This document shows positions 40,364 through 64,000 of a DNA stretch of 64,000 nucleotides, in pieces (the first letter of the stretch is position 1; each line of letters opens with the position of its first letter). A program made the position numbers and the translations under genes. Source of the DNA: Cladosporium halotolerans (taxonomy: Eukaryota). Location: NCBI RefSeq assembly GCF_011745625.1, contig NW_027191484.1:62001-126000 (forward strand). The letters are read 5' to 3'. The notes beneath the pieces are model-generated. The model was not told the DNA's origin, did no database searches, and saw only the letters and a program-made list of their open reading frames with translations.

Positions 40364-40474
40364 TGCAAAATGTTAGTCGGTAGGGTATCAAGGAGAGTGC
40401 TACGAAACCATTTGTTTTCTAACTCTTCAAAGTCGCTCAGACGACTACTAGTGCAGCCTTGGATATGAGTTGTG

Positions 40475-40773
40475 GGTCGCATGTGCCGAGTAGGCTATAC
40501 CAATCATTGCTCGACACGTTGGCGTAGGTATTTGAGCTGTGCCTTGTCGCTAACCCATTATACTTGAATGGTGTGCCGGTCGCATACGCCGGATGAAGTA
40601 TACCAATCATTGCTCGACACGTTGGCGTAGGTATTTGAGCTGCGCCTTGTCGCTAACCCATTATACTTGAAGATGGTGTGCCGGTCGCATGCGCCGGATG
40701 AAGCTTACCAATCATTGCTCGACACGTTGGCGCAGGCTTTAAAGCTACGCCTTGTCGCTAACCCACTATACTT
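40475..40773. repeat. ~103-105-bp tandem repeat, about 3 copies
   Basis: Core taccaatcattgctcgacacgttggcg..gccttgtcgctaaccca.tatactt recurs; ggtcgcat starts at 40475, 40578 and 40683. Confidence 0.92.
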
Positions 40774-41565: not shown

Positions 41566-41573
41566 TATAAAAA
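41566..41573 (+). promoter_or_regulatory. TATA box at -30 of the 5S rRNA gene
   Basis: TATAAAAA 30 nt upstream of ACATACGACC, the position known for dispersed filamentous-ascomycete 5S genes. Confidence 0.7.
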
Positions 41574-41595
41574 CCCTAAACTTGAACTGGTGACC

Positions 41596-41636
41596 ACATA
41601 CGACCACAGGTCAGTGAAAACTGGGCATCCCGTCCG
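41596..41636 (+). rRNA. 5S rRNA gene, 5' 41 nt only (interrupted)
   Basis: ACATACGACCACAGGTCAGTGAAAACTGGGCATCCCGTCCG matches the ascomycete 5S 5' end (ACATACGACCA....GAAAAC.GGGC.TCCCGTCCG); similarity stops at 41637. Confidence 0.88.
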
Positions 41637-43480: not shown

Positions 43481-44038
43481 ATGGAAGTATCAGCGGACCG
43501 CCAGCGCGCGGTGCCAATGGAGGCGCATGTTGCCAGTACCAAGGGTGGGGTTGACAACCTCATCAACCTCAGTGGACTAACCGAATTTCCTCCCACAACA
43601 AATACAGCCAGCAAAGCCGGACCAGAAGTGGTAGAGCCATCCTGTCCGCCGAAGCCTCAACGCAGAAAATCCACGCCAATCTTGGCTGCTTGTTCCCAAT
43701 GCCAGAAGATGAAAATAAAGTGTTCGGGCGAGCGTCCTACTTGTTCATCGTGTTGCCTCCGTGTACTCCCATGTCGCTGGGGTGTCCGAGAAGGGTTGAC
43801 AAGACATGCGGACATGAAACAGACAATATCAGCTTCCACACAGCGCCAAATCGAGCTGGAGAGGTCTTTGGCAGAAACGAAAGGTCAGCTGAACGTTCTG
43901 ACACGATTTGTTCATACTCTTCGAAGTGGCTCTGATGCGGAGTCTGCGCTGGATCTTGCAAGACTGCGCCTCGGAACCGCAATCGAGGACATTGTCCGCT
44001 ATCAGGACTCCCGACTAAGCACCGCCCGCCCGATTTGA
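43481..44038 (+). CDS. Miniature Zn(II)2Cys6 protein (185 aa)
   Basis: ACSQCQKMKIKCSGERPTCSSCCLRVLPC, coiled coil, LRSGSDAESALDLARLRLG, then stop. Confidence 0.8.
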   Translation: MEVSADRQRAVPMEAHVASTKGGVDNLINLSGLTEFPPTTNTASKAGPEVVEPSCPPKPQRRKSTPILAACSQCQKMKIKCSGERPTCSSCCLRVLPCRWGVREGLTRHADMKQTISASTQRQIELERSLAETKGQLNVLTRFVHTLRSGSDAESALDLARLRLGTAIEDIVRYQDSRLSTARPI

Positions 44039-44582
44039 GGCTGGTAAGTTGCAGATCTTATCATCTTGGGTGGAAAGCACAAGAGCTCATAGGTGTCTAA
44101 CACAATCGCTGCACATGCAGCGAGGTCAGAAAGTATCATTGCTGCCAGCCTGGCTTTGGTGCAAGGTCTTCCCGCAGGCGCACCAAGATCACTTCGTGCT
44201 ATTGCAGATCAACCGATCGTCTCGCTGCGATGGGAAGACGCATGCTATTCCCATGTCTCTTTTCAATGACGCGGCGCCTGCGCAGGGGCTCTTACCTGAC
44301 GCCCGTCTTCCCGCTGCACCTCCATATCGAACGAGTAGCGTTGCGCTTTGCATCGCGATTTCCTCGCTCCAACGATTTGTCAAGAGGGCGGTTAACAAGC
44401 ATATGCAACGCAACATAGACCTCGAACCGTGCGCTTTTGCTTATAAAGGCCTCCGATCTCTTTGGCGTGTACGCTGGATGCATCACTGATTCATCGTCTT
44501 TTCATAATGCGGGCAAATTCTAAAGCTGCTTCGGAGCAAAAAAATATGAGCACCGGCTGGTGTGGATGCACGCACAGGAAGG

Positions 44583-45009
44583 ATGACATATTCAGCATGC
44601 TCGCAGTGCCGCAGTCGGAAGCTAAAAGTCGTCTCTTGCTGCGTAGGCGGTTAGGCATTCTGATAATAAGAAGCTGATCGTCCTTGCGGATAGTGCTCTG
44701 GTGAACGGCCAACTTGCAAGATGCGCGGAGAAAGATCGGGCTTGTGCATACGACATTGACATCGGAGTGACCCGGCGGCAGGCACTCATTTTGCAACTCA
44801 ACATGGCTCGTGAGCAGCTGAGCAATTGTAAGAATGTCATGCTTGCTTTGCAATATGGCTCAATCACGGATGCTACCGAGCTTTTGGCTCGACTACGGCT
44901 TGGAGAAGACGTCGATGAGTTAGCTAGCGTCGTAAGCCAGCGTCGAAGCACGTACGAGCATCGCATCGGTTATTCAGCAGACGTGGATGACACTGGGACA
45001 AGGCAATAA
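44583..45009 (+). pseudogene. Frameshifted miniature Zn(II)2Cys6 gene
   Basis: SACSQCRSRKLK | intron 44628-44693 | CSGERPTC, then a frame change to RCAEKDRACAYD..LQYGSITDATELLARLRLG; in-frame TGA at 44547 upstream. Confidence 0.7.
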
Positions 45010-45293
45010 AACATCGACACCACCAGCAACAACTTGCTATCATTTCCTGCTTCTAAGAAGAAACTGTTCGGGACCGCAGTCTGCTAGTGTGGCGCTGAAA
45101 TGCTGGACCACGATACAGTACGATACCTGCGTTTGTCTTTGCTTGAAAGCTAGCAAGAGGCAAGATTGTCAGGGCGCAGAGATCTGGCCTTGAAACCAAT
45201 TGCGACTATTACAGGCATTCTCAAAAGTCATGTCAACTAATCTCTTAATGACCTCCGATTTCTACGCTCTCACTTTCGATGTTTTCGGAACAC

Positions 45294-45795
45294 TCACGTC
45301 GAGTCGCTCAATGATTTTGCTACGTTCATAGGGTCTTTCGACGCTCGTATCTCCCGGAACGCTTCCCGAGCCTGACGGCTCGAGCAATTTCGAATATAAT
45401 GAAAGAATCCGTGGAAGTCATTCACTTCCACTTGCAGTACGGTGATCTTTCGCTGGAGGGATGCGAAACGTGTTGAGTTAGGTTCAACATCGTACTCGCA
45501 AGGGGCACCCTTGTTCGCACAACGTTCGCAAGAAGGTCGCCGGCTATCGCACTACTGAAGTGTCAGAGCCCTTCTAGAGCCTTCTTTTTTACCAGGTAAA
45601 ACTTACCTTCGCTTTCCCCCTCTGGCAAGCTATACACGCAACTTTGACCTGACTTCTCCGTACCCGCGATATCGGCGGCGACAGCGCTTGGAGGTTATTA
45701 ATATTGGCGTCGATCGTCCGAAAGACAGGATCCAATGTGTGAGCAGTCGTGCTTCTAGGCGCTAATAACCTTGGTGCTCGTTGTTCCCTAGCCAT
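45294..45795 (-). CDS. Miniature Zn(II)2Cys6 protein (~148 aa), 2 exons
   Basis: VKVACIACQRGKAK | intron 45552-45606 (GTAAGT..CTGAC..TAG) | CDSRRPSCERCANKGAPCEY..AREAFREIRASKDP..ST*; the stop overlaps a possible GTGAGT donor. Confidence 0.8.
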
Positions 45796-48095
45796 CGCCA
45801 CGCAAACAAATTTGATTTGATCTGAGTGAGGTCTGTGCCTGATACAGACAAAGCTTCTAGCGTGAATGTTTGAGAACTCGCAAAGATTGATGTGGGAGAG
45901 ATGCAGTGCAGACTGCTTGGTGATGTATCGCAGCGCGACTCCCTGGCAACTGAAGGATCAGATCGATCGGAGGAGGCGGCTTAGACCGTGTCCCGTCCTG
46001 CACATTGGCCGCCTGCATCCTGGTACCGCTTATGTACAGTAGTGAATGAACGTGTAAGAAATCAGGGCCTAGTTCCTGCATCGCCTAAGCTTCCCCGCAG
46101 GCATGCGATCAATGAGCAAACGGCAACTTCGTGAAGGAGCAATGCTGAGGTGTCGCAGCAACCTCATATCGGTTAGCCGAAGCCAACACGTCACACCTGG
46201 TTCAATGCTTCCCTGCAGCGAGACGTCGTTCCAGAGCTTCTCCGAGAAGCGCGTTACTGCGTCCACAGCTTGCATCTCGACTGCACTTGTATGCGATTGA
46301 TTCAGCCCTACATTGGCGCCCAGATTCAGGGTTTCCTCTTACGACGTGAGAGCTGACAGTCCAGACCCTTGACCTGCATGAACGCTGCAAGCCGTCCTCT
46401 GTGTCGTCTCCTGGAAGGGCCGCCTTTGATTGGCTAGTCACTATGGGACACTAGCGGAAGCAAGCAGCTGCCTATGAATCGCGGTTGCAAAACGCTTAGA
46501 CGGTACAATGCCATGCATCGCAAGGTCTTGGCAGGGGACCTTCTATGAGCTTCCATACGGTTTTGCTCCCCCTGCTGCGGAACGATGACCGCCCGCATCG
46601 GTATCAAAACCGCTGAGACGCGGTCTCGTTGCGGACGGACAGACGGCAAGCCCGCCTTGCGGCACGGAGCCGACCGATCGAATCAATGGTAGCAGAGGTC
46701 GCGACATCGGAGCTTCTCCGCGTCTGGCCCTCATCAGTGGACCCGAAGGCTGATCCTGCCGAAAAACCGGTCTTGCGCTTTTCTGCATGCCGCAACCTTC
46801 GTCATGGTCTCTAGCTGGATGCATTTGGATGCACGACATTCTTCTCGTCGTAGCGCATCTGGCGCATCTACTTTCAACTCTACTCAGACCGCGTGACGCC
46901 TTTCCGCAGGCTCGAAAGCAGACGCGTCGAACGATGACGGCGACGATTTGGACGAGGGGACGGCTGTCCGCGCGATCGGTGCCCCGACACATGGTCAGGC
47001 CGATAGGCAAATGACAGGAGAAGAGCAAGAGATGGAATATTAATCAGTTATGGCGTGGATAACAGATGCAGAGCGAAGATCAGAAAAAACGTCCCGGCAC
47101 AGGTGGACGGACATTACCTGTGCAGCTCTGGCTTGACCGTGAGCAGAACTCGGCCATCGCGGGTGTCTTCAATAGAAAGCGAGAGCGCTTCGAGGCAAGC
47201 GGCGGTGTGCGACTCGCGCAGCTTCGCCTTGCGAAATACGCGCATTCGGACCGCTTCCCCGGTGCTGCAGAGCTCCACCACCCTTTCCGGATAGAAGGCG
47301 CGAATGGCTGTGCAATCTACGCGCTCTCGTAGCGCCCGATTGCATAATCTCCAACCAATTGCATCTCGCATGAAGGTCTTTTGCTTGCCACCATCCACAT
47401 CTTACCGCGTGTTTGCCTTACACTCAACACCACTTCATTGTCCGAGTCCGAATATGTCTCAAGATGCCTAGGCGTGCATGTTCGCAGAGCGGAAATGTCC
47501 GAGCGTCAGGCAGCATGTGCCATACCTCGTGACCGCTTTAACCTCAGGCGGAATACGAAAGCGTTCTGCTGCGGGCAATCCGGCGTGTCGCAAATGGCTT
47601 CTGCCGAGCTTGACCTTCCATCCTGGACGACGGGTACAGTAACGGAATGACGTTCTTCGGCAGATTTGGCGCGCTAGCGGATTAAGCGAGGAGAGCTACA
47701 GCCGATCGTCATCGGGCGTCAGCGTTTTGCCACGCAAATATGTTCTCTCATGGGTTCATGAGTCCGCGGCGACATCCGCACACCTATTCCCTCGAAATGC
47801 CACATGTGCTTCTCTCCGTGCACTCGTCACGTGCTTGTCCAAGATAATATGTGAGTCCCCAAATTCCTGAAGTATAAGACCGACTCAACGGGCCCTGTGC
47901 GTGGCTGCCGGACAAGCGATGCGTCTTTGCCGCGATGGGGTGATACTGATGGCGCGAACAGCCTGCCTTCTACAAAATGTCTAAATGGCCGTGACAACTT
48001 CCATATATTCGGCCTGATCGATCATCTATGAAGAACTTTCAAATTTCTTAAGAGTACTCGATCGAACGACAGCCGCTACATCCACCGAACGCACG

Positions 48096-48602
48096 ATGAA
48101 CGAGAGCATGCCCGTCCATTTCTCCGCGGAAAGTCTCCGAAATGAGTGTTCTGGGACATCCCAGAGGGAAACTGGGTCTTCAAACGAGGCGAGTGAGAGC
48201 ACAAAGCGCATGCAACAGACAGCGAGGAGCAGCGACATTTCAGACATTGTACCGAAGCCTTGTGAGTTGGCTATCGCAATCACGGAGGATAAGAAAATGC
48301 GTAGTGAAGGCCGCTGTCTACATTGCAAAAAGAGGAGAGCGAGGTGCTCAGGGCAGCCTCCAGCCTGTCAGTCTTGTAGAGAGCGTGGGCTGACCTGCTC
48401 ATGGGACAATGGGCACGGTTTAACATGGCAGCAAGACCTGGTACGATCGCCACCAGACCAGCCACAGACAGACAATCTGTATACGCTTGTTTCTGCATTC
48501 CGAAGCAGGTCAGACGATGAGGCTACAATGTTGCTGGCTAGATTACGGCTGGGCGCTTCCGTCGGAAGTCTCGTGGAATCGATACGCACGGATTCCATCT
48601 AA
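48096..48602 (+). CDS. Miniature Zn(II)2Cys6 protein (168 aa)
   Basis: CLHCKKRRARCSGQPPACQSCRERGLTC..FRSRSDDEATMLLARLRLG..DSI*. Confidence 0.8.
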   Translation: MNESMPVHFSAESLRNECSGTSQRETGSSNEASESTKRMQQTARSSDISDIVPKPCELAIAITEDKKMRSEGRCLHCKKRRARCSGQPPACQSCRERGLTCSWDNGHGLTWQQDLVRSPPDQPQTDNLYTLVSAFRSRSDDEATMLLARLRLGASVGSLVESIRTDSI

Positions 48603-50353
48603 GACTTCAACGAAGACAAGTGCTCTCCTGTCACGCCTAAGGATCACTACGTTCAGAAGGCCATCCCCGAATGCTTGATCCTCGGCCTGTGATTGTCAGC
48701 TGAAAGAGCGCCGACTGCACGAACGCGGTAGTGAGATTCACGACGCGCTGTGCTCGACACTTCTTCCCAAACTTGCGCTGCCGGTACGAGCATCGCGTGC
48801 AACACAGAACCACGCACATATATCTTCATTGGAAAGCATGGGCAACGAGGCATTAGACGATTTCCACCGGACAGCATGAGGGCATCTGAGAGGTACATTA
48901 GCAAGCTAGAAACGTATCCTCGTACCCGGGGGATAAACGTCCACACGCGCGACGAACCGAATCTTTAGAACGGGTCTGCATCACTGTGCGTCTTTCGCAG
49001 GGCTGTTGATACGAATGTGCTGCACCGCACTCAATCCAAAGGATCTTGGGCAGATCGATTGTAAGTTATGCATGACGGGCGACTTCTCACAAAAGATGAT
49101 GCATGATGTTCAAGACTGCAGTAACCGACCAACCGTCAAACTGCTCAAGGTGTCATGACTGCAGATCGATGTTTCTGGAGTCGCTGAGCGATGGAGGCGA
49201 TTCCATACTATCCAAGCTTGCTCCTCGACTGCTCTTTCATCTCCTTCACCATCCTCCGCGCTTCCGCCTCTGGGTCCGTAGTCTTTGTATCGAAGGAAGC
49301 GACAGCGAGCTGAGCATGTGTGTCGCGACCAATTTTGGCCACGAATTTCTTCAGAGCCGTGCTTCGGCTGCGAATAGACTTGGAGAACGAAGTTCTGTTT
49401 GTCGCCTATCCTCTCACCAGCATCGACACGTAATTGAGCGTTTACATCCTCGCGTATGTGCAAAGGGGCGACTCGACGCCCTGGCGTGAACGTCTTGGTT
49501 GTCGCAGCCTTTGCAAGGCTACCTGGAGTCGGCGTATTGGAGAGACGGCTTCGATGGCTTCGAACGTTTTTGGAATTCCGTGATATGGGTTAATCTCGCA
49601 CTTCGGTATCAATGTACCATGGAGAGTGGAGCAAACGTCGGAGCAACGACCGAGATCACCACATCTGATGCAAATCGGCGCCATCGGAGGGCGTTTCAGA
49701 ACAGGAGGCCTTGAGCTCGATGTTGTTCATTCCCAGTCCCGAAATACGGTACGTCTAATAAGTAAGCGGCTACGCGCTTAGAAGCTGCTGCGTCCCGCCT
49801 CTTGACTATCTTTCCATGATTCGTCTACGCTATCAATTTTGCGCTATGTCAAGATTTGACGATCTATCATGTTTCAGGCGCAGGGTTGAAGAATACATTG
49901 TCTCGTTAGATGTTCCAACACATGCAAAGGAAAGCTCACTCGGTAAGAACAGCGCGCCCCGGTAAGATTCCCGTTCCCTCTAGGTTTCTCGTATTCACCT
50001 TGACTTAATCTACAGCCATGTTTTTATCCGGAACAGTCTCCTACGGTGTAGTTGTGGCCTTGTGTTGCCATATAACGCATGGAGACGTAGATTGCCCACT
50101 TCTTCGGGACACCAGAACTGCCAACGAAGACGCATTTTTCAAATCCGAAGCGACGCTCAAATGCAATTAGACTCTTCCCTGTAAGACTCATGAACCTGAC
50201 GCTGACTCTGCTCTTACAGAATGAGTAACGTTGAACCGCGTTGTGCCCTGCGTCAAGGTCAAACATATGGGCATGCTATGCAAGGCAGCAAAGATGACAA
50301 AAGACTCGCATAAGGAATACGTAAGGCATGGCCGTCTCCGACCATCAACTCCT

Positions 50354-51150
50354 TCAGTAAGACGCCCAGTCAGCATCAGGCCACCTCAAGTACTTCACTC
50401 GCCAAAATGAAGATCTCCGAGATACTCTGTTCAAGCGCACCAGATTAGGGTTGGACATCGACCCAGACGGGAGCAGATCTCGTACGGTCTCAGCTACTAG
50501 AATGAGATACATGCTCTTCGAGTACGCAGATAAGAGTCTCGCAACGGTAACATTGGAGACTGCAATGCCGATAGAGATCCACTTTTCGACACCTTGCAAC
50601 CTCGAGATAACCCAGCGTTACAACAGAAGACCGTCGCAATGAACAAATGATAAGAAGTCACGTGCACCCCGCATTCATCCAAGGCGTCGATCACGGCTGT
50701 CAGCCCAACAAGAGTTTGCACATTGCCTGCAAGAAGGCTCTCGTTTTCTGCAATCGTGTGATTCCTTCTCCACGTAAAGGTTGTGGGATTCTGAGACGGG
50801 TTCAGGGACTTCAGGTTGGATGTTGATGGTTCGGCGAAGTATACTGGATAGCATGACTTCCGAAAGAGTGTACAGTCTGTTCCGCGTAAAGACAATAGAC
50901 GAACACTACCGGACGATCGGCTGTGTGCTGGGTTCGAAGAGGATGATCAACAACGAAAGCAGCCATGACGGTTTCCCCGGCGCCGGGGATACCAGGATAG
51001 ACCGTAGTCGAATCCTTCAGGCGCATCCATGTTTGAAAATGATAAGGGCTTCATTCTATCATCAGTTCTGCTGCAGCAATGATGTCAGAAGCCCCGTGCA
51101 CTGATGTTGCGTTGCGATGGTATTAGGCGTCCAGTGCATTGGCCTTCCCA
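50354..51150 (-). pseudogene. Degenerate NACHT (STAND/NLR-like) NTPase remnant
   Basis: YPGIPGAGETVMAAFVVDH..VVFVYC (Walker A with K->E) and VIDALDEC (Walker B) lie in different frames; boundaries approximate. Confidence 0.7.
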
Positions 51151-51583
51151 CAAGACCCCTCAGGCTCGCCGCGGATATGCCTCAAATTGTTCCCACCCCG
51201 CACACTTGGACGGCCGCGTCCAAAACTCGCTAAGTGACGTACGAATATCTGGGAACTCTGTCGAAGCTTCGACGGCCGTGAGCTACGCTGCGCTCTCGCC
51301 GGCGATTCCAAGGGGTTTTCCTTGAGCGAAGGGTAAACAAAGTCTGCAGATGGAGCAGAGGACACAAGTCAAGTGGCACTTAAGTGCAAAGTTCATGGGC
51401 GGGTGCAAGGCAATGCAGCCGAAATCTACCACTAAAACGTATCACGCGAAATCCAAGCTCCGGTGCGCAATGTTAGGATGTGAAGGCGGTTCGCACGGTC
51501 GGATCCTCTGAGACTTCTTGGTAGTCTTGCCATGACAATCAATCTCCTTGCAGACCGTAGCAGTGGCGGTTCCTTGAATATCT

Positions 51584-52378
51584 TTAAGTTTCCTGTAGAG
51601 CGTCCAGCAACAACACGACTATCTGCGAATAACGTGCCGCTGTTGCATCTTCGTGCTGCAACCGAGTCTTGCATCTTTCAAGCAATGCTGCAGCGTCGTT
51701 TCCTGTGTAGTGGCAACTTGTCGGTAAAGGTATACTCCCGACCAACGCGGCGGCTTGGACAGCATTCCCGTGCTTGCCACCGTTGATGTTTGCATCAGCG
51801 CCATGCTCGAGGAGATCTCGGACCATGGCCACCTGTCCCTCAACGCAAGCAATTTGTAAAGCGGTATGGTAGGGCCCTGCGACTTGATTCACATTGGCGC
51901 CGTGTTTGATAAGCGCAGAAAGAATACGACGGTCACCATAAGCCGCAGCTAGTTGTAGAGGTGTGCCGAAGGACGAAGACTCCGTGTCGGCCGCCGCACC
52001 GCATTGCAAGAGGCGCTCGACAATGGCCTCGTTGCCACCAAGGATGGCAGCTTGCAAAGGAGTTTCGAACGGACCTCCGACGCAATTAACGTTGGCACCT
52101 CGCGTGATGAGCATATCCACCATGGTCGGACGGCCCTCCTCAGAAGCGGCCAGAAGTGCAAAGCTTAGGCACTCGACATCTCGTTGATCATATCTTTCAT
52201 GATACAACATGTGTTGGAACCCGTCATCCTCGACTTGGGCAACCGAGGAGGCTAGAGCGCATTGTTCCTCATGTGCGTGCTGGCAAGCGATGGCATTGGT
52301 GGTGCTTCGATTCAATCGAGGGCGGCGTGCAAAGTTCGTACTCCCCATACGGTCGTTTGGCGTCGGAGATCGGTTCAT
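51584..52378 (-). CDS. Ankyrin-repeat protein (start uncertain; possibly an NLR fragment)
   Basis: ALLAASEEG..GANVN, TPLQAAILGG, TPLQLAAAYG..GANVN, TALQIACVEG..GADAN, NAVQAAA. Confidence 0.7.
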   Translation of the reverse strand: MNRSPTPNDRMGSTNFARRPRLNRSTTNAIACQHAHEEQCALASSVAQVEDDGFQHMLYHERYDQRDVECLSFALLAASEEGRPTMVDMLITRGANVNCVGGPFETPLQAAILGGNEAIVERLLQCGAAADTESSSFGTPLQLAAAYGDRRILSALIKHGANVNQVAGPYHTALQIACVEGQVAMVRDLLEHGADANINGGKHGNAVQAAALVGSIPLPTSCHYTGNDAAALLERCKTRLQHEDATAARYSQIVVLLLDALQET

Positions 52379-54555
52379 GTGAAGAGAGATGGTGACACAG
52401 CTTGCAGCGCGGATGACCCAGCCAGTCGAGCTAGTGTGGGCTTCAGGTCGTGGATTCGGAGTGCACCAACTCGTGCAAGGTGCGAGCTTCAAGAGCCTGT
52501 GACGCCAGACCCGCCCGAGCAGCCTCCCGCAGATGCCAAGCGCCTCGTTGTGTGGGATCGACGCGTCTAGAATGGCCACGATTCGAGAATGGAGGGCGGG
52601 GTGAGTGTAGTGCCAACTTTTTGAAAGCAGGAGCCCTGCGATACAAGACCTGATGCAAAGTCGCAAGGAACTCAGAATCCATGTTTCAAGAAGCAGGAAT
52701 AAGCCGCCGGTTCCAGGAAAGCTGGCACGTTGGGCACAAGGGACTGTCCAATTGCATGAGGAGTACGTCGTCCAAATCCCCTATTCTCATCGTCGTCGAC
52801 AGTATCAGGATCCCAGCGTGTTGCGACTGTGGTGTGAAAGCTCCCAAAGACTCAAGTCCTGGCTACCGCTTGCAGGAAAGGTGACGCTATTCTTTCGTTA
52901 TTGCATTCGTGAATATGAAATTCAAGTATCAGGATAGAAGATGGAATGTGAAGACCAGGATAGCACTTAGAGGAGATTTTCCTATATGGGGAGCGTAGGT
53001 TGGCAACTGCCTGATTTAACTAATCGTGAATCCTTGCATCACGGCCAATCAAAAATCGGGACTACCTCACTCCTGGCATCTGTATATCAACGATACGGAA
53101 TCTCTCCTGATAAACCATCACATATGCTCAGTGCATGTTTAGTTACCAGGATGCGAGTGCGAATAAAATGTATCTCAGGACTTATGGTGTTGTAAAAATA
53201 GGATGCAAGCTTCCCAAGTCTGCCATTCCTTACGCCTAGGTCCTCGTTTTTCGGTTCGCAACCCTTGTTTAAGCTTGATATGCAGGTAGAGCACCTTGTC
53301 AGAAGTTGCAGTCCTGGTTATACGGTCATAGTCTCGATGTGTCAACATGGATTAACAGACCAAATTCCGCTATTCGGGATGTAGGAATTTGGCCGGGCGA
53401 GCGCCGCTTGTATGGTTTCTCCGGGAGGCCGCAATTCTGGAATTTACGGACGGGATGGATTCCGCGCTACCTTCCCTACCAGCTTTCTGCCGAGTAGACG
53501 TCCCCATGGCTTCTCAGAACCGCTGATGAGAAGCCTACGCGCTCTCGAAGCGCCAGAGCACACGACATTACCCTGTTCGTGATCTCTGAGACTTCCGGCA
53601 TGTTGAACGCACTGTCTCGGACGTGTAGCAGAACCAATGATGGGGCTACAGGTTCAACGAAGACATTCATTGGCCACCCTCTAACTTGCCCTCTCTTCTG
53701 GTCCTGCTGTCGCAGACCCCGCATTGAGGGGCTCGAGCTTCTTCTAGATTGCCTCGGTGAGCGGTGTTGGCTAGGTTCAATAAAGTCTTTAGTCACGACA
53801 TTTCGTAGATCTCTTCCTACTATGTCCGCCGCAGAGTGGTTGATGGAAAGTCACGATCAGCCCCGATTCGGGTGATCACTGACACCACATGACCATCCAC
53901 CAGGCGACCAACATTATGATGAAGCTGGCTTACTACTGTACGCCCAAGCTGTAATTAGTTTGTAGGTCCTCAGCCTGGTTGAATGTCGGTCTCGCGGTCC
54001 AAATCTGGCCCTTTGCTCAGGAAATTCTTTCCAACTCAGTCTCTTAAATGCTCTTCATCACCCGCCCCAACGACGGATGGGCAAAGTCTATAATGAAGCG
54101 TCCAGCTCAGCTCTCAGCTTCGATTACTTGATTGAACAATTTCATCACAGCACATGATCTTAAATTAACACCAGTCGTCGTAGATCATAACAGCGCAGCC
54201 AGCAGATCTTTCCACTGATCTGCTAACGTGACTCCGGTTTTCTCGAGAATTTAGATGCCCGATCATTCACAAGCCGACGCACGCAGCAGTCAGTCGAGGA
54301 TTCGCAACCGAAGAATCCTCGACTTAAAGCTCGTTAGAGCGCTCGAGAACCATGGTATGTCATGTTTGGCGTAAATTTCTGCTTTGACACATGACCAGCT
54401 GCAATAATCCGCCGAAGAACATAGCCTCCCAGGTCTTGGGCTTGAATCAGTTCTTATAGGAACCGGCAGTCACGCAAACTAATGGTCACAAGCAATCGAG
54501 AGTCACAAAATCTCACCACAGGCCTACCCCGAAATTGGGCACCGCAAAAGGAGAG

Positions 54556-55234
54556 ATGCCCGCTCGAAGCCAATTGACCTCACCTGCAGGTAATCTCACG
54601 TGATGGAATAACGAAAACACGTACTAAAAATACAGCAGCAATGCCGATGTACGAAATGGAAGATCTTGCGGACTCGTTTGCTCTTCTTTGGCCAGCAGAA
54701 GATCCAGGAAACTCGAGGACAGTCATGAGAGACACGGCTATGACTGCTATTGATAGCTTCTATGCCTTTGATATGACAAGAAGGACGAGGACTATAGGGA
54801 TTATGCTTGTCGAATCGACCGGCCAAATGCATGCAGCTGTGAGCGGGTGGCTGACCCAGATGTACAACGTCGCCACTTTCCCTCAGGTACCCCAAGCGGA
54901 CGCCTTGGGTAACGTCGTTCGATTGGCTGATCTCATTGGGCACCAACTTGAAGCCTCCTACCGTGACCGAGGAGAAACTGGCCGTTATAACGCCTGCCAC
55001 TGCGAGAAACAGCTCGTTGCTAAACATTTCTTTGGCGAGCCTCTCGGCAAAATAATAGATATTGTGATCAGTAGAGAGCCCTGCGGAGATTGTTGGAACT
55101 TCATGGCACGGCTGGAGCTCGTTCTTGGGCTACATGTCAACATCTACGTCAATGGCGAGCTTTCATTCCATGGAAGGGACGATGCTCTCTTGCGTGAGTG
55201 GCTGGCAATCTTTGGGGAAGTGCTGCAAGTGTAA
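54556..55234 (+). CDS. Standalone zinc-dependent nucleic-acid deaminase-fold protein (SsdA/DYW-like), ~210 aa
   Basis: AVSGW..GRYNACHCEKQL..IVISREPCGDCWNF (HxE..PCxxC); in-frame upstream micro-exon 54556-54589 with intron 54590-54635 (GTAATC..ACTAA..CAG). Confidence 0.72.
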
Positions 55235-55507
55235 CGCATCGAAGAGAAGCGTTAGTTCTAGTTGCTCAGAATTTACGTTTGCATCAGAGTTGAGGAAAGC
55301 TTTTGAGCAAAGTCACTCACTGTAATTATCAAACAGTGAAAAGCTCACCATTACCGTAAGAATGGGAGGAACGAATATTTGAGGACTTTGGAATATGCCT
55401 GGGGTGGGCGGTAGTAGCTCTTGATCATGTCGAGAGTTGTTTGACCCATCCTCGGAGTCGCCCGCTGGCGTCCAGCGGAGTCATGAATAGCGACAATTCT
55501 AGTATTG

Positions 55508-56697
55508 CTAAGTATCATCAATGCTCCAGAAGGGGTGCTCCAAAATCTGGTCAATGGTGAATCTAGCCTTGGGATCTAGATTCGTCATACCTGAGAACAT
55601 GTGTAATGCTTCAGGTCCAAGTTCTGCACCCCATTGCTCGAACCTGAGTCCAGGCTCTTCCTTGACCGCCTCATCAGCTATGTCAGAAGCTCCCCGCAGT
55701 GCAGAAGACCAGTCTTCGTCGTTTACATGTATAAAGAGTGCATCCGGCACCGGTCCAAAGTATGAGAAATGTCGAGTCAATATTTCTTGTTCCGGCGTGA
55801 TACCGCGGTCCTTCAGCTTTTGATAGCCGTCCAGGAGTAGGAAGTCGCCTCCTCCCATAGCGTATATTCCCTTATGGCGGGCGTTAGCAAGTTCCTAGTC
55901 TTCGCTTCGAGGTAACGTACCACGAGACCGAAGGAGTAGATGTCCGAAGCTTTAGTCACTGCTCTTCCTGTCTGCCCTTCTGGACTTCGCCACATAGCAT
56001 TGCCTATCGCATATGGGGTATAGCATGAAGCTCCATTTTTTGATTTGAACACAAGATCGAAGTCGCCGAGAGCTACATCGCTGACTACTTTTTCCCCTTC
56101 TGCATCGTAGGCCCAGTTGGCCAGAACGTTGTCAGGTTTCACATCTGCAGGGTGAACAGATCAGCTTGATGAAACGCGAGACTATTTAGGGCCGAGGAAG
56201 TACCGATGTGAATCCAATCCCTACCGTGCAGCTCTTGAATTGCTTCCCCTACGTGTCGTAATATTTTCTTTCGTTCTTTTATAGACAATTCAGGGCCATC
56301 TTGGATCAGAGCGAGGAGGGTGCTCCTAAAGTAGGGGAACACTAGGACACCTTCCTCTTGGTTGCAATCAGTGTGCAATCGAAGCCGACGAGAGTCCTGA
56401 AACTCTGATGCAAACCGCATAGACAGATCATAGAACTGCCTAGGCACGCGCTTAAGGACAAAATAGTCATTGCCGGATCTTCACAACTTGTATCAGTCGC
56501 CATAAAGGGCACATAAACGACCCAACATACTGGGCTTTGAAGATACTGAGCGCGTGATCCTCGCGATGTCGCTGCAGCACTTGGCCGCGCGCGTAAACGC
56601 GACCCGAGTCGCCCACTAAAGTGGATGACATCCTGACTGCTGTAAAGTGGGGTTGTGGAATAGAGAGGTGACGACGAACGATATTGTTGAATCGCAT
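55508..56697 (-). CDS. Fungal Ser/Thr protein kinase, 4 exons (start at 56697 or at the downstream MSST)
   Basis: FVLKRV, WIHI|DVKPDN, LGDFDL, GNAMWRSPE, SDIYSFGLV, MTNLDPKARFTIDQILEHPFW across intron-separated ORFs. Confidence 0.85.
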
Positions 56698-57320
56698 GAA
56701 TGAATATTCGGCAATGTGAGTCTGTTGATGTATGTAGTTTCCCGATTGTAAGGCTGGCTCTCGCTGAATTCATTCAGCAGTCTTTCAGAAAGCCCCACGC
56801 CAAGAAAAGCGCGTGTTGCGCCTGAACTGCAGTCACTCCGCGGGATCTTCTAAGCCAATCATTTAGTCTTGGCATATCTGAATACTCGGCGTATCGCGGG
56901 AGCCGCAGCTGACATGGCTGTGAGGCCGACAAATAGTTAGTTTGACCCATTTACCAACGGCCAAGCGCGCATCTACCGTTTGAAACACGATTCTCCGAAG
57001 TCACACAATGGATGATGCGCTTTTGGCGAATCTGCATTGACGTGTCACCAAATCAGCCTCGATTCGCTCCTTGCAGTGACGAAAAACATGAGTTCTTTGC
57101 GCATGAGATCAAGTATTGGCCGGCGGGATGTTCTGTAAGCGCTAAGATAAAGTGGTTAAGGACGACTGGACTGGCAAGTGTTCCGTAAGGGGATTCGGTG
57201 AGCCATCACTAAGCGCCCACAGCTCTGGTTCGATAACTAGAGACGAGTTATAAGGCTACATGGCAGCAATCATTTCACCAACAACTTCACTCTCAATTTG
57301 TATTACAGCCATTTGCAAAG

Positions 57321-57683
57321 ATGCCGAATAAAGTGATTAGCAGTTCTACCATCAAGACAATCTCAAACGGAGGCCGGCAGATCACTCTTCAATATGCTAC
57401 GAAGACCGACACTTGGAACCGCTATAACCTCGCAGTAGACGTGCAACAGAAGTTCGCCAAAGCCATGGAGAAAGCGGAAGTTCCGGCAGGCGCGACGACA
57501 GCTATTATGGCGTGAGTCAACCTTGCCTCCTTTAGCCTTTGGCAGTGCGCACATATTATTGACTTTCTTCGTGCCAGTGAAACCGAACATCCCAGTCAGA
57601 AGGATTCTTACCCTCATTACACTACTGTCTACCAAGATGAAGATGGGCAACATATCACCACGAAGCATGTCTATCCCAAGTAG
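57321..57683 (+). CDS. Small hypothetical protein (98 aa) with His-rich C-terminal motif, 2 exons
   Basis: TATAAG ~70 nt upstream; intron 57512-57577 (GTGAGT..TTGAC..CAG) restores frame to ETEHPSQKDSYPHYTTVYQDEDGQHITTKHVYPK*. Confidence 0.7.
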
Positions 57684-58448
57684 TCTGAGATTTCGGGAGT
57701 TTGGAGGACCAAGAAGCGCCTGAGGAGAATCTGAGATTTCAAAAGCATGAAGGGAGTGTATCTAGCGCATCCGCCTGTCGCTAATTTTACGATGGGCTTG
57801 AGCTGTGCTTCCGACTTGCGCAAAAGGATCCGAAGACTTTGTCCAATAGCTATTAGCCAGTTATTCAACGCTTAGCGCCAAACTTGTCGCGGAGCGAGCC
57901 GGCATGCAATCGCCACCAGTGGCCCTTTGACAGGACCCTGTAGATAACAGATCGATTGGTGGAAAAAGTGAAGCGCCATGTGCTTTGGCTGGCTGCTGGA
58001 GTCCAGCGAAGCGCCGCGGCCGCAGCACGCCATGTTTATTGCATCCGCTGAACCCCATCCTTTCACAAGCTCTACATTGGCTCACGGGCTATGACTGGTA
58101 TCAGCTCAGGGTTCGTGACCAACTTAGCCAGGCTTAAGCGCCGAAGTGTGATACGTAAAGTGCTAGAAATACCTATTAATGTGTTTCCGGCTCATTAGCG
58201 GCATTCAGATGGCTTCCCAATGTCTTTCCACGCCTATTATTGGACACAGCTGGCTTATCTAGCGCTGGGTCCCGATCCTGCTAAGTTGTCCTCGAAATCA
58301 TCACAAAGTACACAAGCCCATGCTCCTCGTCTGATGCTTTTGCATAGCATCCTCAGTACTTAGAGGCCAAAGATCTGCCAGTGTTTAGCGCTTGGCAAGT
58401 GCAATTTGACGAGTCTTCGTCTGGCCTTCAAACCGATCTTCACCAAGG

Positions 58449-60421
58449 ATGGATCCAGCGAGTGCAGCCGGTCTGGCATCTTTGGCCTTTGATGGATTTG
58501 ATCGTTCAGTCAAAGGTCAGCAACTCGTGAAGTAATTCAGAGCAACTAAATTGACGGATCTATAGTTCTCAAGTTCTTCTCGTCGATGGTTGACGTGCCG
58601 AAAGATTGCGAACGATGCAAGGTGCAACTCATGATCGAATACAACCGTTTACTGGCCTGGGGAGATGCGGTCGGGCTTATTGATGTGCCAGAAGGATCGC
58701 ACGTCGCATATTGCCTGGGGACGAACGCTATCGAACTCTGCAACATTGTTTCCCGCATAGCTCGGCTTCTGGAAGAATTCAAAGAATTGAACAATCGCTG
58801 GAAAAGTGACTTGAACTCGCGCCAAATGGACAACATGTCACTGCGTGAGGAACATGCGAAGAAGATGGATTTGACCAAACAGGTTTCGAGCTTAGCAGCG
58901 GCTTATGAAGAAAATGAGCAGAAAAGGAAGCATGTGAGGGCCGTTCAGCGCCTGAGTGAGTGGATATCTAGGAAGGCTGATTGCACTAAAGACATCATCA
59001 CCAACCCTTTGCGTGTTCGTTGGGTCATGATTGACAGGGAAGCTTTCGAAGCCTTGTTAGAGGATCTCCACAACTTGACAGAGCGGATACACGAGTTGAT
59101 GGATGATTACCGTGTGAAAACAATCCACGAGACGACCGCCAAGTCTTTTCGAGAGATGGTTATTATGCGGAACGATCTCAAAGAACTCAAAAGCATGCTC
59201 GAAGCGGTGGCAAGCCTTATGAAAGTTTCGAGCACCGACCCCCACGGTGAATTCACTTCCAACGCTGATAACCATGAGACACTCCGGGACCTCCTGCGAT
59301 TGAAGGAGCTCAAGTGTGCATCTAAGGAGATGCTGCTCCATGCCATGACCAGCGCTCGCATAGATATCGACGAATACCTGAAAGGCGTTCTTGCCGTACC
59401 CCGGTACCTGGGGATGCGCCAATTCGAACAACAATTCACCCTTATTGCGGTCGCCGGTGTAAGCAATTCGGTACCAAATCGTCCGAGGGGTGTATTCTCC
59501 AGGGAAGGCATCGATTTTCAGGTCTGGATTGAATGGAGAAAAGCGGAAAAAATGTCTGCTGGATCAGTCGAAGACAATCAATCGGTATTGCGAACGGCAA
59601 CACTTGCACAAATGCTTTCCATCTCTAGACCAAGGCATCTCTATACACCGACTTGTATTGGATATGTCGACAATCGAGAATCACCAGACCGGTTCGGATG
59701 GATCTTTCAGATGCCTCATGGATCCCACAGTGAGACTACGCTGAAAACTCTCCACAATATGCTGGGCCAAAACAGCCACAAACCTACGCTTTCCCAGAGG
59801 ATCGCCATAGCCTGGAAACTCGCTTCGTCCTTGTCATACTTACATACGACTGATTGGATACATAAAGGCGTCCACAGTGGAAATGTTTTATTTCCCTGTG
59901 ACAATAAATCGATAGATACACAGCAACCGGTTCTTTCAGGATTTGAGTATTCAAGGCCCCAAGGCGGCGAAACGACATCTCGCAGCCCCGATCCGAGGTG
60001 GGACATCTACCGGTGGCCAACGGTGCAGAAGGAGGCGCCGAAAGCAGGAAGATCGCGGAAGACTTACGATATTTACAGCTTCGGGCTACTGCTCCTTGAG
60101 ATAGCCCATTGGCAGCCATTGCATAGCCTGTTGTGTTTGAAGAGGTGGCCAGCACCGTCCGCTCAAGACTGTAGGGTTCGGGGTTGGCTCTTGAACGAAG
60201 AGCCATTGCCTCCTTTCAGAGGTGAAAATCCCCTTACCGATCTGCTACATATCGCCGGCGACAAGTACTGGAAGGCTACCAGACGTTGTCTCGTGGCACA
60301 TGGCGAATCAGGCATGGCTGTTGACGAGGACTCAAATCAGTCGGAAGCTTCCAATAGTATACGGCTTCAAGACGCCTTTACCGAGCTTGTTGTCGGTGAG
60401 CTGAAGGGTGTCTCGATCTGA
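58449..60421 (+). CDS. HeLo (prion-inhibition/propagation) domain + pseudokinase protein, 2 exons
   Basis: Exon 1 MDPASAAGLASLAFDGFDRSVK, intron 58516-58565; HeLo hallmarks QLMIEYNRLLAWG and RVRWVMIDREAFEALLEDL; kinase-like half with VWIEWR, WIHKGVHSGN, LSGFEYSR, DIYSFGLLLLEIAHW. Confidence 0.88.
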
Positions 60422-60622
60422 ATTAAATCCAAACATAACCCTGGAAATGTCTCGTGTGAAGTTGGAGATCCAATAGTATGCGAAAAGTATTAATCGCAAG
60501 GCCATTCTAAACTAGATTATGGCATCAGGTTGCAGTTGCCCTCCAAATCGTGGTTTCACTGACAATCAGTCACATATTCGAGTACCGTTTGCCTCAATTT
60601 CTTGCAGTCTCCAGCAACTGAA

Positions 60623-62071
60623 TTAACTGTTATCTTGCTGGCTGGCAGTGCTTCTACTCTCCAACAAACTTTGCAGGTTGCTATATTGCTTCCTCACCAC
60701 GAAGTGAAGCGCTGTCCATCCGTCGAGATCTTCTGTGAGAGCATTGGCTCCACTGTCTAACAAAATTCGAACAACAGTCTCGTAGCCGTGCCCCGCCGCT
60801 CCATGTAATGCTGTTTGGTCGTTCTCGTCTTTGGCGTTGACGTCAGCGGTTTTTTCAAGAAGCTGCTTGACGACATCGTAATGCCCATTGCGCGACGCAC
60901 AGTGGAGTGCGGTTTGCCCTGCTGCGTTCCGGGTGTCAACTGGAGCCCCAGCGTCGAGGAGAGCCTGCACAATAGAACCTTTACCGCGCGCTGCAGCGAA
61001 GTGAATTGCTCCAAGACTTCGTGCTTCTGCTCCCTCTCTCAGGAGGAATTTCACGTCGTCCTCTGAACCCGTTCTGCAGGCGTCATTCAACTTCTCGTTC
61101 TTGGTGCGCGGTATATCCTTCGCGCAGCTGCAGAACAGAGAATGATCTTGCATTGGTAGGGACGACCACGATTGTTCCACATCCTCTGCGCAAGGGCGTG
61201 AGCATCTGTCAAAATCCAGCATTTTACGGCAGGTGACGAGTAGATCATGCTGCCAGCCTTTAGGATGGAGACTCTCTTCTATCCAACAATGAACCTCTCT
61301 GATCTGCTTTGCGTAAGATGAAGTGGAGTTAGGCGAGGGCTTGAGAACATTACTCAAGTCCTTCGACTGGCCCGGGAAGAAGCATGCAACGAACATCTCA
61401 AGGAACACTGCCCCTAGGGACAAAATATCCGCAGAACGACCACGGGTCGCTCCTTGATCGACTTCTGGGGCGCAATACTCTCGAGTCCTAGAGGAATTGC
61501 GAGACTGATAGGTAGTTGGCATTGTTTTCCCGAGACCCATTTGCGAAATGCCAAAATCAGCTAAGAGAATCTTTTCGCCCTTGATCAGTACATTCGACGG
61601 TTTGATATCTCGATGTCGGATGCCCAGAGAATGAATGTAGCGTAGAACACCTATCAGACAACCGAACCACTGTAATGACGGTGCCAATCCAGGCCGGAGA
61701 TAGAAGTGAAGATTAGCCTCTGCGCGGTCCATGACTATGGCAAACTTGTGTTGATCTTGATCCACCATATCAAAGTACGAGTGTATCAATCGAATGACAT
61801 GGTAATGCCGAGCTGAGTGGAGGACTTTGACTTCCTTCTCGATTATTCGTCTCTGATGAAGTTCGGAGATCGGTTCTGTCTCATTATCGAGCATGAGGGT
61901 CTTCCGGACGCACTTGAGACCCTCAAAGCCCCCAGAAACTCCTTTCACTTTCTCAACACCAGTGGCTATCAGTGATGAGTTGCCGTCAGGTGCGAAAGGT
62001 ATTTGGTCATCATCCTGGTAGGTAAATAGCTCGTAGGGTTCAACCTCGGGCCACATGCACGTCGTTTCCAT
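60623..62071 (-). CDS. Ser/Thr protein kinase + C-terminal ankyrin repeats (a further 5' exon 62131-62198 is possible)
   Basis: CVRK, EKEVKVL, IRHRDIKPSN, LADFG, YCAPE, ADILSLG; 4-5 ankyrin repeats (GQTALHCASRNGH, QTALHGAAGHGY, GWTALH). Confidence 0.9.
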   Translation of the reverse strand: METTCMWPEVEPYELFTYQDDDQIPFAPDGNSSLIATGVEKVKGVSGGFEGLKCVRKTLMLDNETEPISELHQRRIIEKEVKVLHSARHYHVIRLIHSYFDMVDQDQHKFAIVMDRAEANLHFYLRPGLAPSLQWFGCLIGVLRYIHSLGIRHRDIKPSNVLIKGEKILLADFGISQMGLGKTMPTTYQSRNSSRTREYCAPEVDQGATRGRSADILSLGAVFLEMFVACFFPGQSKDLSNVLKPSPNSTSSYAKQIREVHCWIEESLHPKGWQHDLLVTCRKMLDFDRCSRPCAEDVEQSWSSLPMQDHSLFCSCAKDIPRTKNEKLNDACRTGSEDDVKFLLREGAEARSLGAIHFAAARGKGSIVQALLDAGAPVDTRNAAGQTALHCASRNGHYDVVKQLLEKTADVNAKDENDQTALHGAAGHGYETVVRILLDSGANALTEDLDGWTALHFVVRKQYSNLQSLLESRSTASQQDNS

Positions 62072-63283
62072 GCTATGGGAGCGTGAGCCAGTCAAATGGC
62101 TCCCGAGTGCTCAGTACAGAACTTGGATACGAATTGAATGGGCCACCGATCACGCCCTGCTGTTTGGAAATGGATGTCAGGGTTGATAAGTTGACCATGG
62201 AGCGGCAAAATCAGCTTGCGGGGGAGTCCGGCGAGGACCAATCACATCCGGCCCAGGCATCCGCGCCATGACTGAATCGCCGGGCATTCCGGATTCGGCA
62301 GCCTGGCAAACACAAACGCCTTCACATCCGCACCAAGTGGACACCCCAATCAGTATTTCGACACCTTCTGGCTTCAGAACCGTCAGTTTCTTCGAGGCCC
62401 GGCCTTGCTAGCCAACCAAGCCGCAGACTTCGAGTGTCGGTCAGGTACCAGGGTAACGTGCACACGACGGACGAAGCCCGTACGAAGAGCGCACGCCTTC
62501 ATGTAGTGTCCGGTGTGAACAGCAGTGGCCCATGCAGTGTAACCGAGTGCGATACAGAATAGCAGGAAATATGATGAGCCACACCGTAGGCCGTTCAAAA
62601 TTTCCGTTCGACGTTGTGTTTATCCATGGATGACACCCAACATTTGGCGCACACCTCGCCGTCCAGTCTTCCGCAACCTTGTCACGTGGAACGATTCAGC
62701 TTGCGCATATTGTCAGCACGCGATGTGCTCCCACCGCCAACGCAACCGCCAACGCCGACCCAACATTGAAGATACAGAACACGAGCAGGAGAAAATAAAT
62801 GCGAGACATAAAGGAACGCGAGAAGATTCCATCGTTCGCACGGGAGATTAGACACAGGCTCAGTAGGTAGGACAAAGCAACACCGAGAAACAACCATCAC
62901 GAGCACCTTCTGGGCTTGTAAAGCCGGGAGCAGCACAAGTAGCACGGCAGTCATTACCCGTCTGCACACAAGTTTGCTAGCCAACGTCAACTTTAGACGG
63001 AAAGAGGTGGACAAGAAGGAGCACAGTTCAAGACGATGTAACACCCCGGGGAAGCAAGGATAATGGCCGCTCTTGAGAGACAGCCTGTGCTGACCTGGGG
63101 ATAACTGGTTTAACGAAATGATCGTGCTGCGTTTTCGCCTGCGGAAACACAGTCAACAACGGCAGCCAGTCCACGTGGGGGCTCAGGATCGCATATTACA
63201 GGATTAGAAAAGTAGGTGAATTTATAGAAGGTGCAAGGATTGTTTTGTGTGAAAATTCTATGCACGATCGGTGTACTCTACTT

Positions 63284-64000
63284 TCAGGATGTGAGCGTGA
63301 AGCCTTTGCCGTACTGGGTCGTAAATTCCGTCTTTGGCCCGTGATTCCGCTGCTCTCCACGAGTGGCGGAAGTGTCACCCTGCTGAGGTGGGATATTCTG
63401 TCCTTGCGTATCGGTAGCTAGGCCGGAAAGGCTTCGAGCTATCTCCTTCAGAGCCTCGTCGCCAACATGCCCTCCGACTTGTCTTGTTCTCCAGCCTAGA
63501 CCTCGGTTTGTACCGTGAATGGTTTTGCCATTTGTGGACACCATGAACTGCACGGCATCACCGATGGCGTAGTTGTCAATGGTGCTCACATTGTCCCTCA
63601 GATGCTCGCTTGCCCGATCACAAATGTCGATACTTTGTCGAGTTGCCTCCCATTCATCTCGTAGCCTTGCAAGGTCCGCACGATCTTCATCCGAAGCAAT
63701 GACTGTCTTGGATCTGTCTATCAAGCTGGCAAAGAGCTTTTCCTCGTATCCCTGAAGTCTTCTGGCTGTATTAGCAAGAGACTCTCTACAGTTTTGCAAA
63801 CCTCCTCTCATGATTTGATCCGGTATGGGGTCAGTGATTGCTGAATCCGTGGACGCAGATGTACGTCTGCTTGTGAGTTCGATCTGCGCAATGTGATCAG
63901 ATAGATCGGCACAGATCTGCAGACACTTTTCAGTGCTCAGCCGCTCCTGCTTTATCATCTCAACTTCTTGTGATTCTCTCTCAGATATCACCACATTCTT
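63284..64000 (-). CDS. 3' part of a helical/coiled-coil protein resembling fungal HeLo-like-N family members, with a beta-repeat C-terminal motif (5' end outside window)
   Basis: Frame open to the window edge; ERLSTEKCLQICADLS.HI, L.DEWEATRQSIDIC, NYAIGDAVQFMVST.GKTIHG.NRGLGWRTRQVGGH, YGKGFTL. Confidence 0.65.
   Translation of the reverse strand, partial: KNVVISERESQEVEMIKQERLSTEKCLQICADLSDHIAQIELTSRRTSASTDSAITDPIPDQIMRGGLQNCRESLANTARRLQGYEEKLFASLIDRSKTVIASDEDRADLARLRDEWEATRQSIDICDRASEHLRDNVSTIDNYAIGDAVQFMVSTNGKTIHGTNRGLGWRTRQVGGHVGDEALKEIARSLSGLATDTQGQNIPPQQGDTSATRGEQRNHGPKTEFTTQYGKGFTLTS

Follow-up and report, generated by a model that had tools for sequence, protein, structure and literature searches.

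A compact SsdA-like deaminase gene carried by a 5S rRNA gene-targeting Starship-type element in Cladosporium halotolerans

The closest characterized relative of the fungal gene described here is SsdA from Pseudomonas syringae (BaDTF2; PDB 7JTU, 9C63; PF24120), a bacterial deaminase encoded with a PAAR/RHS delivery domain and an immunity gene. SsdA is toxic when expressed and displays a residual activity on RNA (PMC11789416, PMC7901873). In the SsdA-ssDNA structure, T290 stacks on the target cytosine (PMC12494967), the SGW motif binds the ssDNA backbone (PMC12494967, PMC7901873), and SGW and the D-x4-G loop contact nucleotides located 3' of the target (PMC12494967). Mutants at H332, Y334 and F343 indicate that these residues are essential or nearly so, two of them for ssDNA binding (PMC12494967). 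The same three positions also vary among bacterial SsdA homologues (PMC11789416, Table S6, rows SH1, SH2, SH10, SH15-SH54). The SGW motif separates SsdA-type proteins from RNA-editing DYW proteins (PMC7901873).

Ascomycetes are described by Iyer et al. (2011, PMC3239186) as encoding DYW-like deaminases of predicted function, which arose from an independent transfer from bacteria, are fused to ankyrin repeats and carry a large insert; organellar editing was suggested as their role. Other fungal deaminases located in accessory DNA, the OTT_1508-like proteins (PF14441), were proposed in the same source to act in defence (PMC3239186) and are annotated in the supplementary cargo tables of two Starship papers (PMC11162782, PMC9156397). 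Four conserved types of Starship cargo are recognized, including DUF3723, ferric reductase, patatin and NLR genes (PMC9156397), and both the targeting of 5S genes and tandem insertion are known for these elements (PMC11162782).

The window analysed here is a stretch of 64,000 nucleotides (C246:62001-126000, from a contig of 277 kb in an assembly of 27.9 Mb), whose Zn2Cys6, HeLo and PigL_N domains (Pfam) and spliceosomal introns are fungal. A preliminary description made from the letters alone had proposed, at 54556-55234, a compact intact gene for a standalone SsdA/DYW-like deaminase in putative mobile cargo. This segment coincides with a spliced gene of two exons (54556-54589 and 54639-55234, + strand) encoding 209 aa. 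Residues are numbered below from the ATG at 54641, which opens a 197-codon ORF (54641-55234).

54249..54555, + strand: transcribed leader, minimum extent (contig cover from 54249 in run X3 and from 54367 in run X20)
54556..54589, + strand: exon 1, 11 codons plus 1 base (spliced joint in runs X3 and X20; in-frame model)
54590..54638, + strand: intron of 49 nt, GT..AG, with a branch-site-like ACTAA, skipped by the X3 and X20 contigs
54639..55234, + strand: exon 2, holding the 197-aa ORF (ATG 54641) and the entire SsdA-like deaminase domain

The unspliced reading from 54556 runs into stops, and removal of the intron puts the ATG at 54556 in frame with the 197-codon ORF. Exon 1 is not conserved in alignments with the relatives, whose ORFs start at the level of 54641-54656. 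Splicing is seen in assembled contigs from two of four public runs, belonging to two studies: X3, which is a metatranscriptome and differs from the window at 7 listed bases, and X20, with 0 base differences, six joints in the stretch and a library type that is not on record. Lack of transcription, named in the preliminary description as a reason to abandon the proposal, is thus contradicted by spliced transcripts. Contigs of the runs X1 and X2 cover the neighbouring kinase gene and not the deaminase gene, which is compatible with absence, silence or filtering. The leader contains six upstream ATGs, and one uORF, starting at 54482, runs across the ATG at 54556 in a different frame.

The gene is single-copy in the genome (protein and profile searches). 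The pattern SGW..HxE[KR]Q..CxxC occurs once in the 277-kb contig and in none of 20 base shuffles, and the looser HxE..PCxxC occurs twice, for a shuffle mean of 0.25; the motif pattern is not due to chance. A simple hydropathy scan (maximum 11-mer value of 1.16 in the first 40 residues) agrees with the reported lack of a signal peptide.

Pfam assigns the protein to SsdA_C (PF24120) with an E value of 5.7e-16 and 59.3 bits, for a curated cut-off of 27. The only other match, to OTT_1508 (PF14441), is sub-threshold (14.6 bits, cut-off 27) and overlaps that of SsdA_C, so that no further domain is recognized, as had been proposed. An AlphaFold2 model built from a 100-sequence alignment (pLDDT 86.5, pTM 0.83) has the deaminase fold, whose absence would have undermined the initial proposal. 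Foldseek at E <= 0.001 returned three matches only, all of them SsdA chains. In the same way, the top structure in VIA-align is SsdA (Z 13.5, rmsd 3.4, 144 residues aligned), followed by PPR-DYW (Z 9.9), blasticidin S deaminase (7.5) and DddA (6.5). The profile of the full 100-sequence alignment was swamped by ankyrins when compared with the PDB; 24 insert-less relatives were therefore used, and their profile matches SsdA at 1.6e-12 and DYW1 at 2.5e-5. DYW proper, DddA and OTT_1508, which the preliminary description had listed for comparison alongside SsdA, were rejected as identities on account of their lower Z, the absence of DYW hallmarks and the sub-threshold PF14441 match. The proposed SsdA/DYW-like assignment is thereby sharpened to the SsdA-like branch of the DYW-like clade.

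The residues on which this assignment and the proposed activity depend are distributed as follows.

54656..54691, + strand: acidic amphipathic N-terminal helix, residues 6-17 (low model confidence)
54788..54793, + strand: R50-T51, which probably correspond to SsdA K289-T290 (a KT motif precedes strand 1; the mapping follows the order of the motifs)
54842..54850, + strand: SGW motif, S68-G69-W70 (conservation of 90% or more among 100 aligned relatives; aligns with SsdA SGW)
54998..55009, + strand: HCEK, with zinc ligand H120 and catalytic E122 (aligns with SsdA H346/E348)
55079..55093, + strand: PCGDC, with zinc ligands C148 and C151 (alignment to SsdA C367 and C370; conservation)

The three motifs first reported are all present (SGW at 54842-54850, CHCEKQL from 54995, SREPCGDC ending at 55093). 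As in the cytidine deaminase superfamily, HxE and PCxxC form a zinc/catalytic site on a deaminase fold; among the 100 aligned relatives, the zinc-ligand H is invariant, and the catalytic E and the D-x4-G loop are at least 90% conserved. Two features of the DYW-like clade (Iyer 2011) are found, HCEK at 120-123 and R110 in the insert, while the D that ends strand 4 is replaced by N171, following strand 165-170.

The fungal protein shares with SsdA the fold, HxEKQ, CxDC and the lack of a DYW tail, and keeps the equivalents of H346, E348, C367, C370, S300-G301-W302, D335, R336, G340 and Y342. The SsdA positions K289, S300, W302, R336 and Y342, at which mutants of SsdA are inactive (PMC12494967), are matched by R50 (by inference), S68, W70, R110 and Y116, the first being K in most relatives. 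The zinc/catalytic site and SGW are thus intact as judged by alignment. However, identity with SsdA is only 15-16%, and the fungal protein is eukaryotic, encoded by an intron-bearing gene and endowed with extra N- and C-terminal helices. SsdA H332, Y334 and F343 are replaced by S106, R108 and N117, so that the aromatic clamp H332/Y334/Y342/F343 is reduced to one residue of four (Y116). All three of these positions vary within the fungal family; across 79 other representatives, the Y334 position is occupied by R in 31 and by Y in 19. Furthermore, SsdA uses a basic groove whereas the close clade of the fungal protein is acidic overall (pI 4.75-5.63 for 9 proteins tested, versus 8.9-9.3 in four other standalone forms).

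The acidity of the protein and the loss of the H332 and Y334 equivalents would suit an enzyme of metabolism or detoxification that deaminates free nucleosides or nucleotides, acting on cytidine analogues or depleting dCTP, and blasticidin S and cytidine deaminases do align with the model (Z 6.9-7.5). However, the strong conservation of SGW and of the D-x4-G loop and the 6 Z units by which SsdA exceeds these enzymes make such a role highly improbable.

An enzyme directed against RNA is a distinctly unlikely alternative, whether as a C-to-U editor or as an antiviral factor, with cytoplasmic mRNA, tRNA, mycovirus RNA or organellar transcripts as substrates. Most mycoviruses are RNA viruses, a cytoplasmic protein would meet RNA first, the SsdA clamp is altered, and the second-best fold match is that of the PPR-DYW editors (OTP86, DYW1), which share the C-terminal-hairpin deaminase fold, HxE[KR] and CxDC with the fungal protein. 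However, these editors have a PPR array, a PG box, a second zinc site and a DYW tail, none of which is found in the fungal deaminase by Pfam and pattern checks; it also lacks a C-terminal CxC and any targeting or RNA-binding domain, its N-terminus is acidic, and it possesses the SGW that sets SsdA-type proteins apart (PMC7901873). Moreover, 12 contigs of a same-organism run show zero base changes over 12 kb including the deaminase gene (at consensus level only).

The mobile context that had been suspected is confirmed by the surrounding DNA. An insertion of 96.8 kb splits a 5S rRNA gene and is flanked on both sides by a 7-base direct repeat corresponding to 5S nt 35-41.

41596..41636, + strand: left half of the split 5S rRNA gene, nt 1-41 (aligned with the 5S copies of the genome itself)
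41637..64000, continuing past the window to C246:200425, no strand assigned: Starship-type insertion (GC, 5S split, captain, cargo)
52774..52873, + strand: internal copy (81%) of the left terminus of the element (sequence match)

The right half of the gene (5S nt 35-120) lies 96.8 kb on, at C246:200419-200504. Rfam finds nothing in the window at gathering score and does not find the 41-nt 5S piece at E <= 5. The GC content of the insertion is 0.50-0.52, compared with 0.577 and 0.563 in the flanks; it drops from 0.58 to 0.50 near 36.5-41 kb of the window and recovers about 100 kb later. The fall begins already about 5 kb to the left of the 5S junction (36500-41600), over ankyrin and PigL_N ORFs, possibly as the result of an older insertion. 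Just outside the junction (40465-40773), a unit of 103-105 nt is present three times in tandem.

The left terminus, found in the genome only on contig C246, is present in four head-to-tail copies, including those at window position 52774 (C246:114774), C246:178021 and C246:195127. The last two are preceded by right-terminus-like sequence, and at C246:198733 a 35-nt 5S relic is followed by the start of another terminus. The repeated termini and the relic indicate repeated insertion at one 5S site, and the recurrence of the termini makes the insertion tandem or nested. Of the genes that follow the second terminus copy, the deaminase gene comes first, with its ATG 1,782 bases in.

About 3.4 kb past the window end, a single captain gene was found (DUF3435, 86.9 bits; C246:129449-133147, + strand, L002:3449-7147). 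Its model is an open frame of 1152 aa with five canonical introns and C-terminal C2H2 zinc fingers, and the captain is probably functional. The gene points inward; 14.7 kb separate it from the closest terminus copy and 25.8 kb from the junction with the 5S gene. The 63-kb stretch that holds the deaminase gene also contains the captain and, further on, DUF3723, patatin and ferric reductase genes, and NLR-type parts (PigL_N, HeLo, ankyrin) occur in the cargo. The element thus shares with the 5S-rDNA-targeting Starships (PMC11162782) the DUF3435 captain, a direct repeat inside the 5S gene, the cargo types and tandem or nested insertion; it differs from them by its four head-to-tail terminus copies and by a sole captain so far from the nearest one. 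A Tc5/DDE transposase gene also lies inside the insertion (C246:191402-193180, - strand), with partial copies near C246:108500 and 188200. The deaminase gene is cargo of a 5S-targeting Starship-type element.

The description of this gene as lying amid decayed sequence does not hold. Its convergent neighbour is intact, and the other neighbours are long ORFs or spliced genes.

55508..56697, - strand: intact protein kinase gene, four exons, convergent (Pkinase matches; three spliced joints; open model)

The kinase gene reads open after removal of three read-supported introns, and in one assembled contig its 3' part is continuous with the deaminase transcript. No RIP signature was detected by dinucleotide indices. 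Only in the 1.5 kb that separate the terminus copy from the leader is there no ATG-initiated ORF of more than 94 aa. Beyond the kinase lies a small spliced gene of 98 aa (57321-57511 and 57578-about 57680, + strand), whose first exon gives weak Atlas leads only (<= 0.83) and which, to our knowledge, belongs to no known family. Further on, at 58586-62095, a HeLo-kinase ORF (611 aa) and a kinase-ankyrin ORF (490 aa) converge and form an NLR-like pair in the cargo.

Close relatives, retained from 284 candidates, comprise 6 proteins of 169-202 aa with 39-99% local identity, and the full library contains 97 representatives at E <= 0.001. The sole named relative is a Vermiconidia protein. In a Pfam scan of 83 relatives (5 close proteins and 78 of 95 new representatives), SsdA_C was found in 82 and ankyrin repeats in 41. 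Among the 83 parsable rows of the 100 aligned, 33 are without insert and 50 carry one; the spacing between HxE and CxxC is 28 residues here, against 43-154 in insert-bearing forms. The ankyrin-fused ascomycete forms thus belong to the same Pfam family and the same kingdom (about 28-47% local identity), whereas the protein studied here is devoid of ankyrins, of their N-terminal Cys/His domain and of the large insert. This N-terminal domain, conserved over residues 1-150 in P0047, P0048 and other ankyrin-fused relatives, has no Pfam match in the rows listed and is possibly a zinc ribbon.

A quick tree built from 84 cores places 57 rows with ankyrins or an insert on one side (SH-aLRT 85), and a support of 99 sets 9 rows round the fungal deaminase, together with one long bacterial row, apart from the other 74. 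The root of this tree is unsure, 40 of its 81 forks are open, two bacterial rows sit on very long branches, and L053, in which the motif was not found, was omitted. The separation of the 9-row group indicates that the compact form is a separate clade rather than a broken ankyrin gene. A gene split from a separate N-terminal or ankyrin half was also considered and rejected, no such half being found on the contig or in the genome; Pfam detects no ankyrin in the spliced gene, and a search at longer length gave none among 1596 candidates, which is weak evidence.

Outside fungi, relatives were found in 1 of 35 pattern matches from prokaryote genomes, in 3 of 401 genomes of one bacterial phylum, in none of 6 pattern matches from viral contigs and in no plasmid searched. 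The leads from the ESM Atlas, which are sequence leads, are all below 0.9 and all point to bacterial clusters of deaminase type.

Comparison with the 57% identical relative of the locus L028 over 197 codons gives dN 0.35 and dS 1.46, hence a dN/dS of about 0.24 (0.19 in the core), a ratio that is rough given a dS near saturation. These values point to purifying selection. Some observations would fit a passenger without current function: the distribution is patchy, relatives are broken, and 3 of the 5 coding differences of run X3 in the gene alter an amino acid (at a depth of 3-4). However, the low dN/dS, the intact catalytic residues and the spliced transcripts make this very unlikely. The gene is real, expressed and under selection.

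Only one of the three close-clade loci available with DNA, L028, is intact. The 37% identical relative at L029:4602-5200 has two stops and an altered SGW, with no RIP signature at this copy; it lies about 4.5 kb from an OTT_1508 deaminase gene and near an AAA_12 helicase gene, both in L029:9741-15144. The relative at L030:2844-3436 carries a frameshift that splits it over two frames and is either a pseudogene or an assembly error. Such breakage fits either a cost or dispensability. When the ORFs of the insertion were compared with L028, L029 and L030, matches were limited to the deaminase and an APH-like gene located 58 kb from it; in L028, 5.3 kb separate the relative from an APH-like gene with 58% identity to that of the insertion. 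This second shared gene suggests a common accessory pool. Neither a 5S sequence nor a significant terminus match was found in 11 related loci.

These comparisons bear on the role of an element toxin directed against its own host, through addiction, spore or heterokaryon killing, or as a death effector of NLR type: the chemistry would be the same but applied to the host genome and checked by a partner. The toxicity of expressed SsdA, a cargo rich in HeLo, PigL_N, ankyrin and kinase genes, the six upstream ATGs of the leader and the breakage of two of three related loci could all be read in this way. However, no conserved adjacent partner gene is common to L028, L029 and L030, the N-terminal domain of the ankyrin forms is absent from the contig and from the genome, and transcripts of the gene occur in the same organism, so that a self-directed toxin is unlikely. 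A delivered toxin is likewise unlikely, there being no delivery domain, signal-like stretch or conserved partner gene. Unlike SsdA, which has its PAAR/RHS domain and immunity gene, the fungal gene was found with neither; it is not a BaDTF2 toxin, nor is it the ankyrin-fused form already described.

The N-terminal helix could bear on the location of the enzyme. Residues 1-20 have a pLDDT of 58-65, and the helix is poorly packed in the model. The N-termini were scored with the class 1a hydrophobic spacing of CRM1 export signals, in the consensus that we take to define it, and with the looser class 3 all-helical spacing. Of 17 non-redundant standalone relatives picked by hand, 8 show the strict pattern within their first 30 residues, for 1.2 expected from shuffles; extending the search to everything ahead of the core gives 10 of 14. 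The fungal deaminase and its representative P0006 have lost the last hydrophobic position; they have no strict class 1a match and match only the class 3 spacing. The inserts of ankyrin forms are not enriched in the pattern (10 of 50, for 6.6 expected). Complex prediction with the N-terminal 32 residues and a 205-residue piece of the CRM1 encoded in the genome scored 0.53, while one unrelated control scored 0.65. The helix may represent a degenerate form of the export-signal-like motif of standalone relatives, and nuclear exclusion through it is possible, as a lead and not a result.

Our preferred reading, held tentatively, is that the protein converts C to U in single-stranded nucleic acid, probably DNA, inside the cell and serves in genomic conflict. 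By analogy with SsdA enzymology, H120, C148 and C151 would hold the zinc, E122 would activate water, T51 would stack on the target cytosine, and SGW with R50, R110 and Y116 would grip the neighbouring backbone. Since the nucleotides adjacent to the target are contacted by SGW and by residues of the loop, the substrate would be a single-stranded polynucleotide, most likely DNA, and ssDNA is on family grounds a reasonably probable substrate. Against the preferred reading stand the loss of the H332, Y334 and F343 equivalents, a point softened by variation within the family and in bacteria, the acidity of the close clade together with the residual RNA activity of SsdA, and the fact that its nearest structural relative after SsdA, PPR-DYW, edits RNA. 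The two broken loci among three, the absence of the strict export pattern here and its lack of enrichment in the ankyrin inserts also weigh against it.

The lack of a signal-like stretch, of a delivery domain and of a conserved partner suggests that the enzyme acts in its own cell, which must then limit it. Foreign or competing nucleic acid would be mutated at a single-stranded stage in the manner of APOBEC3, the targets being retroelement cDNA and viral or incoming element DNA. The host genome could be spared by the low output expected from six upstream ATGs, one of which overlaps the start, and possibly also by nuclear exclusion via the N-terminal helix; sparing would depend on these brakes rather than on an antidote protein. 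A more elaborate scenario, somewhat unlikely as a whole, is that of a compact fungal ssDNA mutator comparable to APOBEC3/AID and derived from bacterial SsdA-type toxins. It would be retained in the cytoplasm through an export signal at its N-terminus and disseminated by Starships, serving them to restrict retroelements, viruses or rival elements, and might leak mutations into the host or the cargo independently of RIP.

The fungal family, of predicted function, and the kind of element are both known; what is new is the compact form that the gene encodes. The open full-text literature searched, which leaves most subscription papers outside its scope, yielded no paper treating fungal SsdA-like enzymes as an experimental subject or as such Starship cargo. 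Large deaminase-mining screens may have included fungal members. Among the matches listed, the deaminase rows of Starship supplements are OTT_1508-like, a deaminase division different from that of the fungal protein; none is DYW in the supplements of two papers, and none is SsdA in that of one.

The preliminary description had also put the protein forward as a base-editor candidate for its small size. With 197-209 aa, compared with 151 aa for SsdAtox and 114 aa for an active truncation (PMC11789416), it offers no size advantage, and its interest in this respect lies in sequence diversity, at 15-16% identity to SsdA. The ankyrin-fused forms have been an open prediction since 2011. With a single-domain, expressed gene that has an intact site and a defined mobile context, one protein and one mutant suffice to test it directly. 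If ssDNA were deaminated, fungi would own a defence or mutator based on a deaminase and carried by giant transposons.
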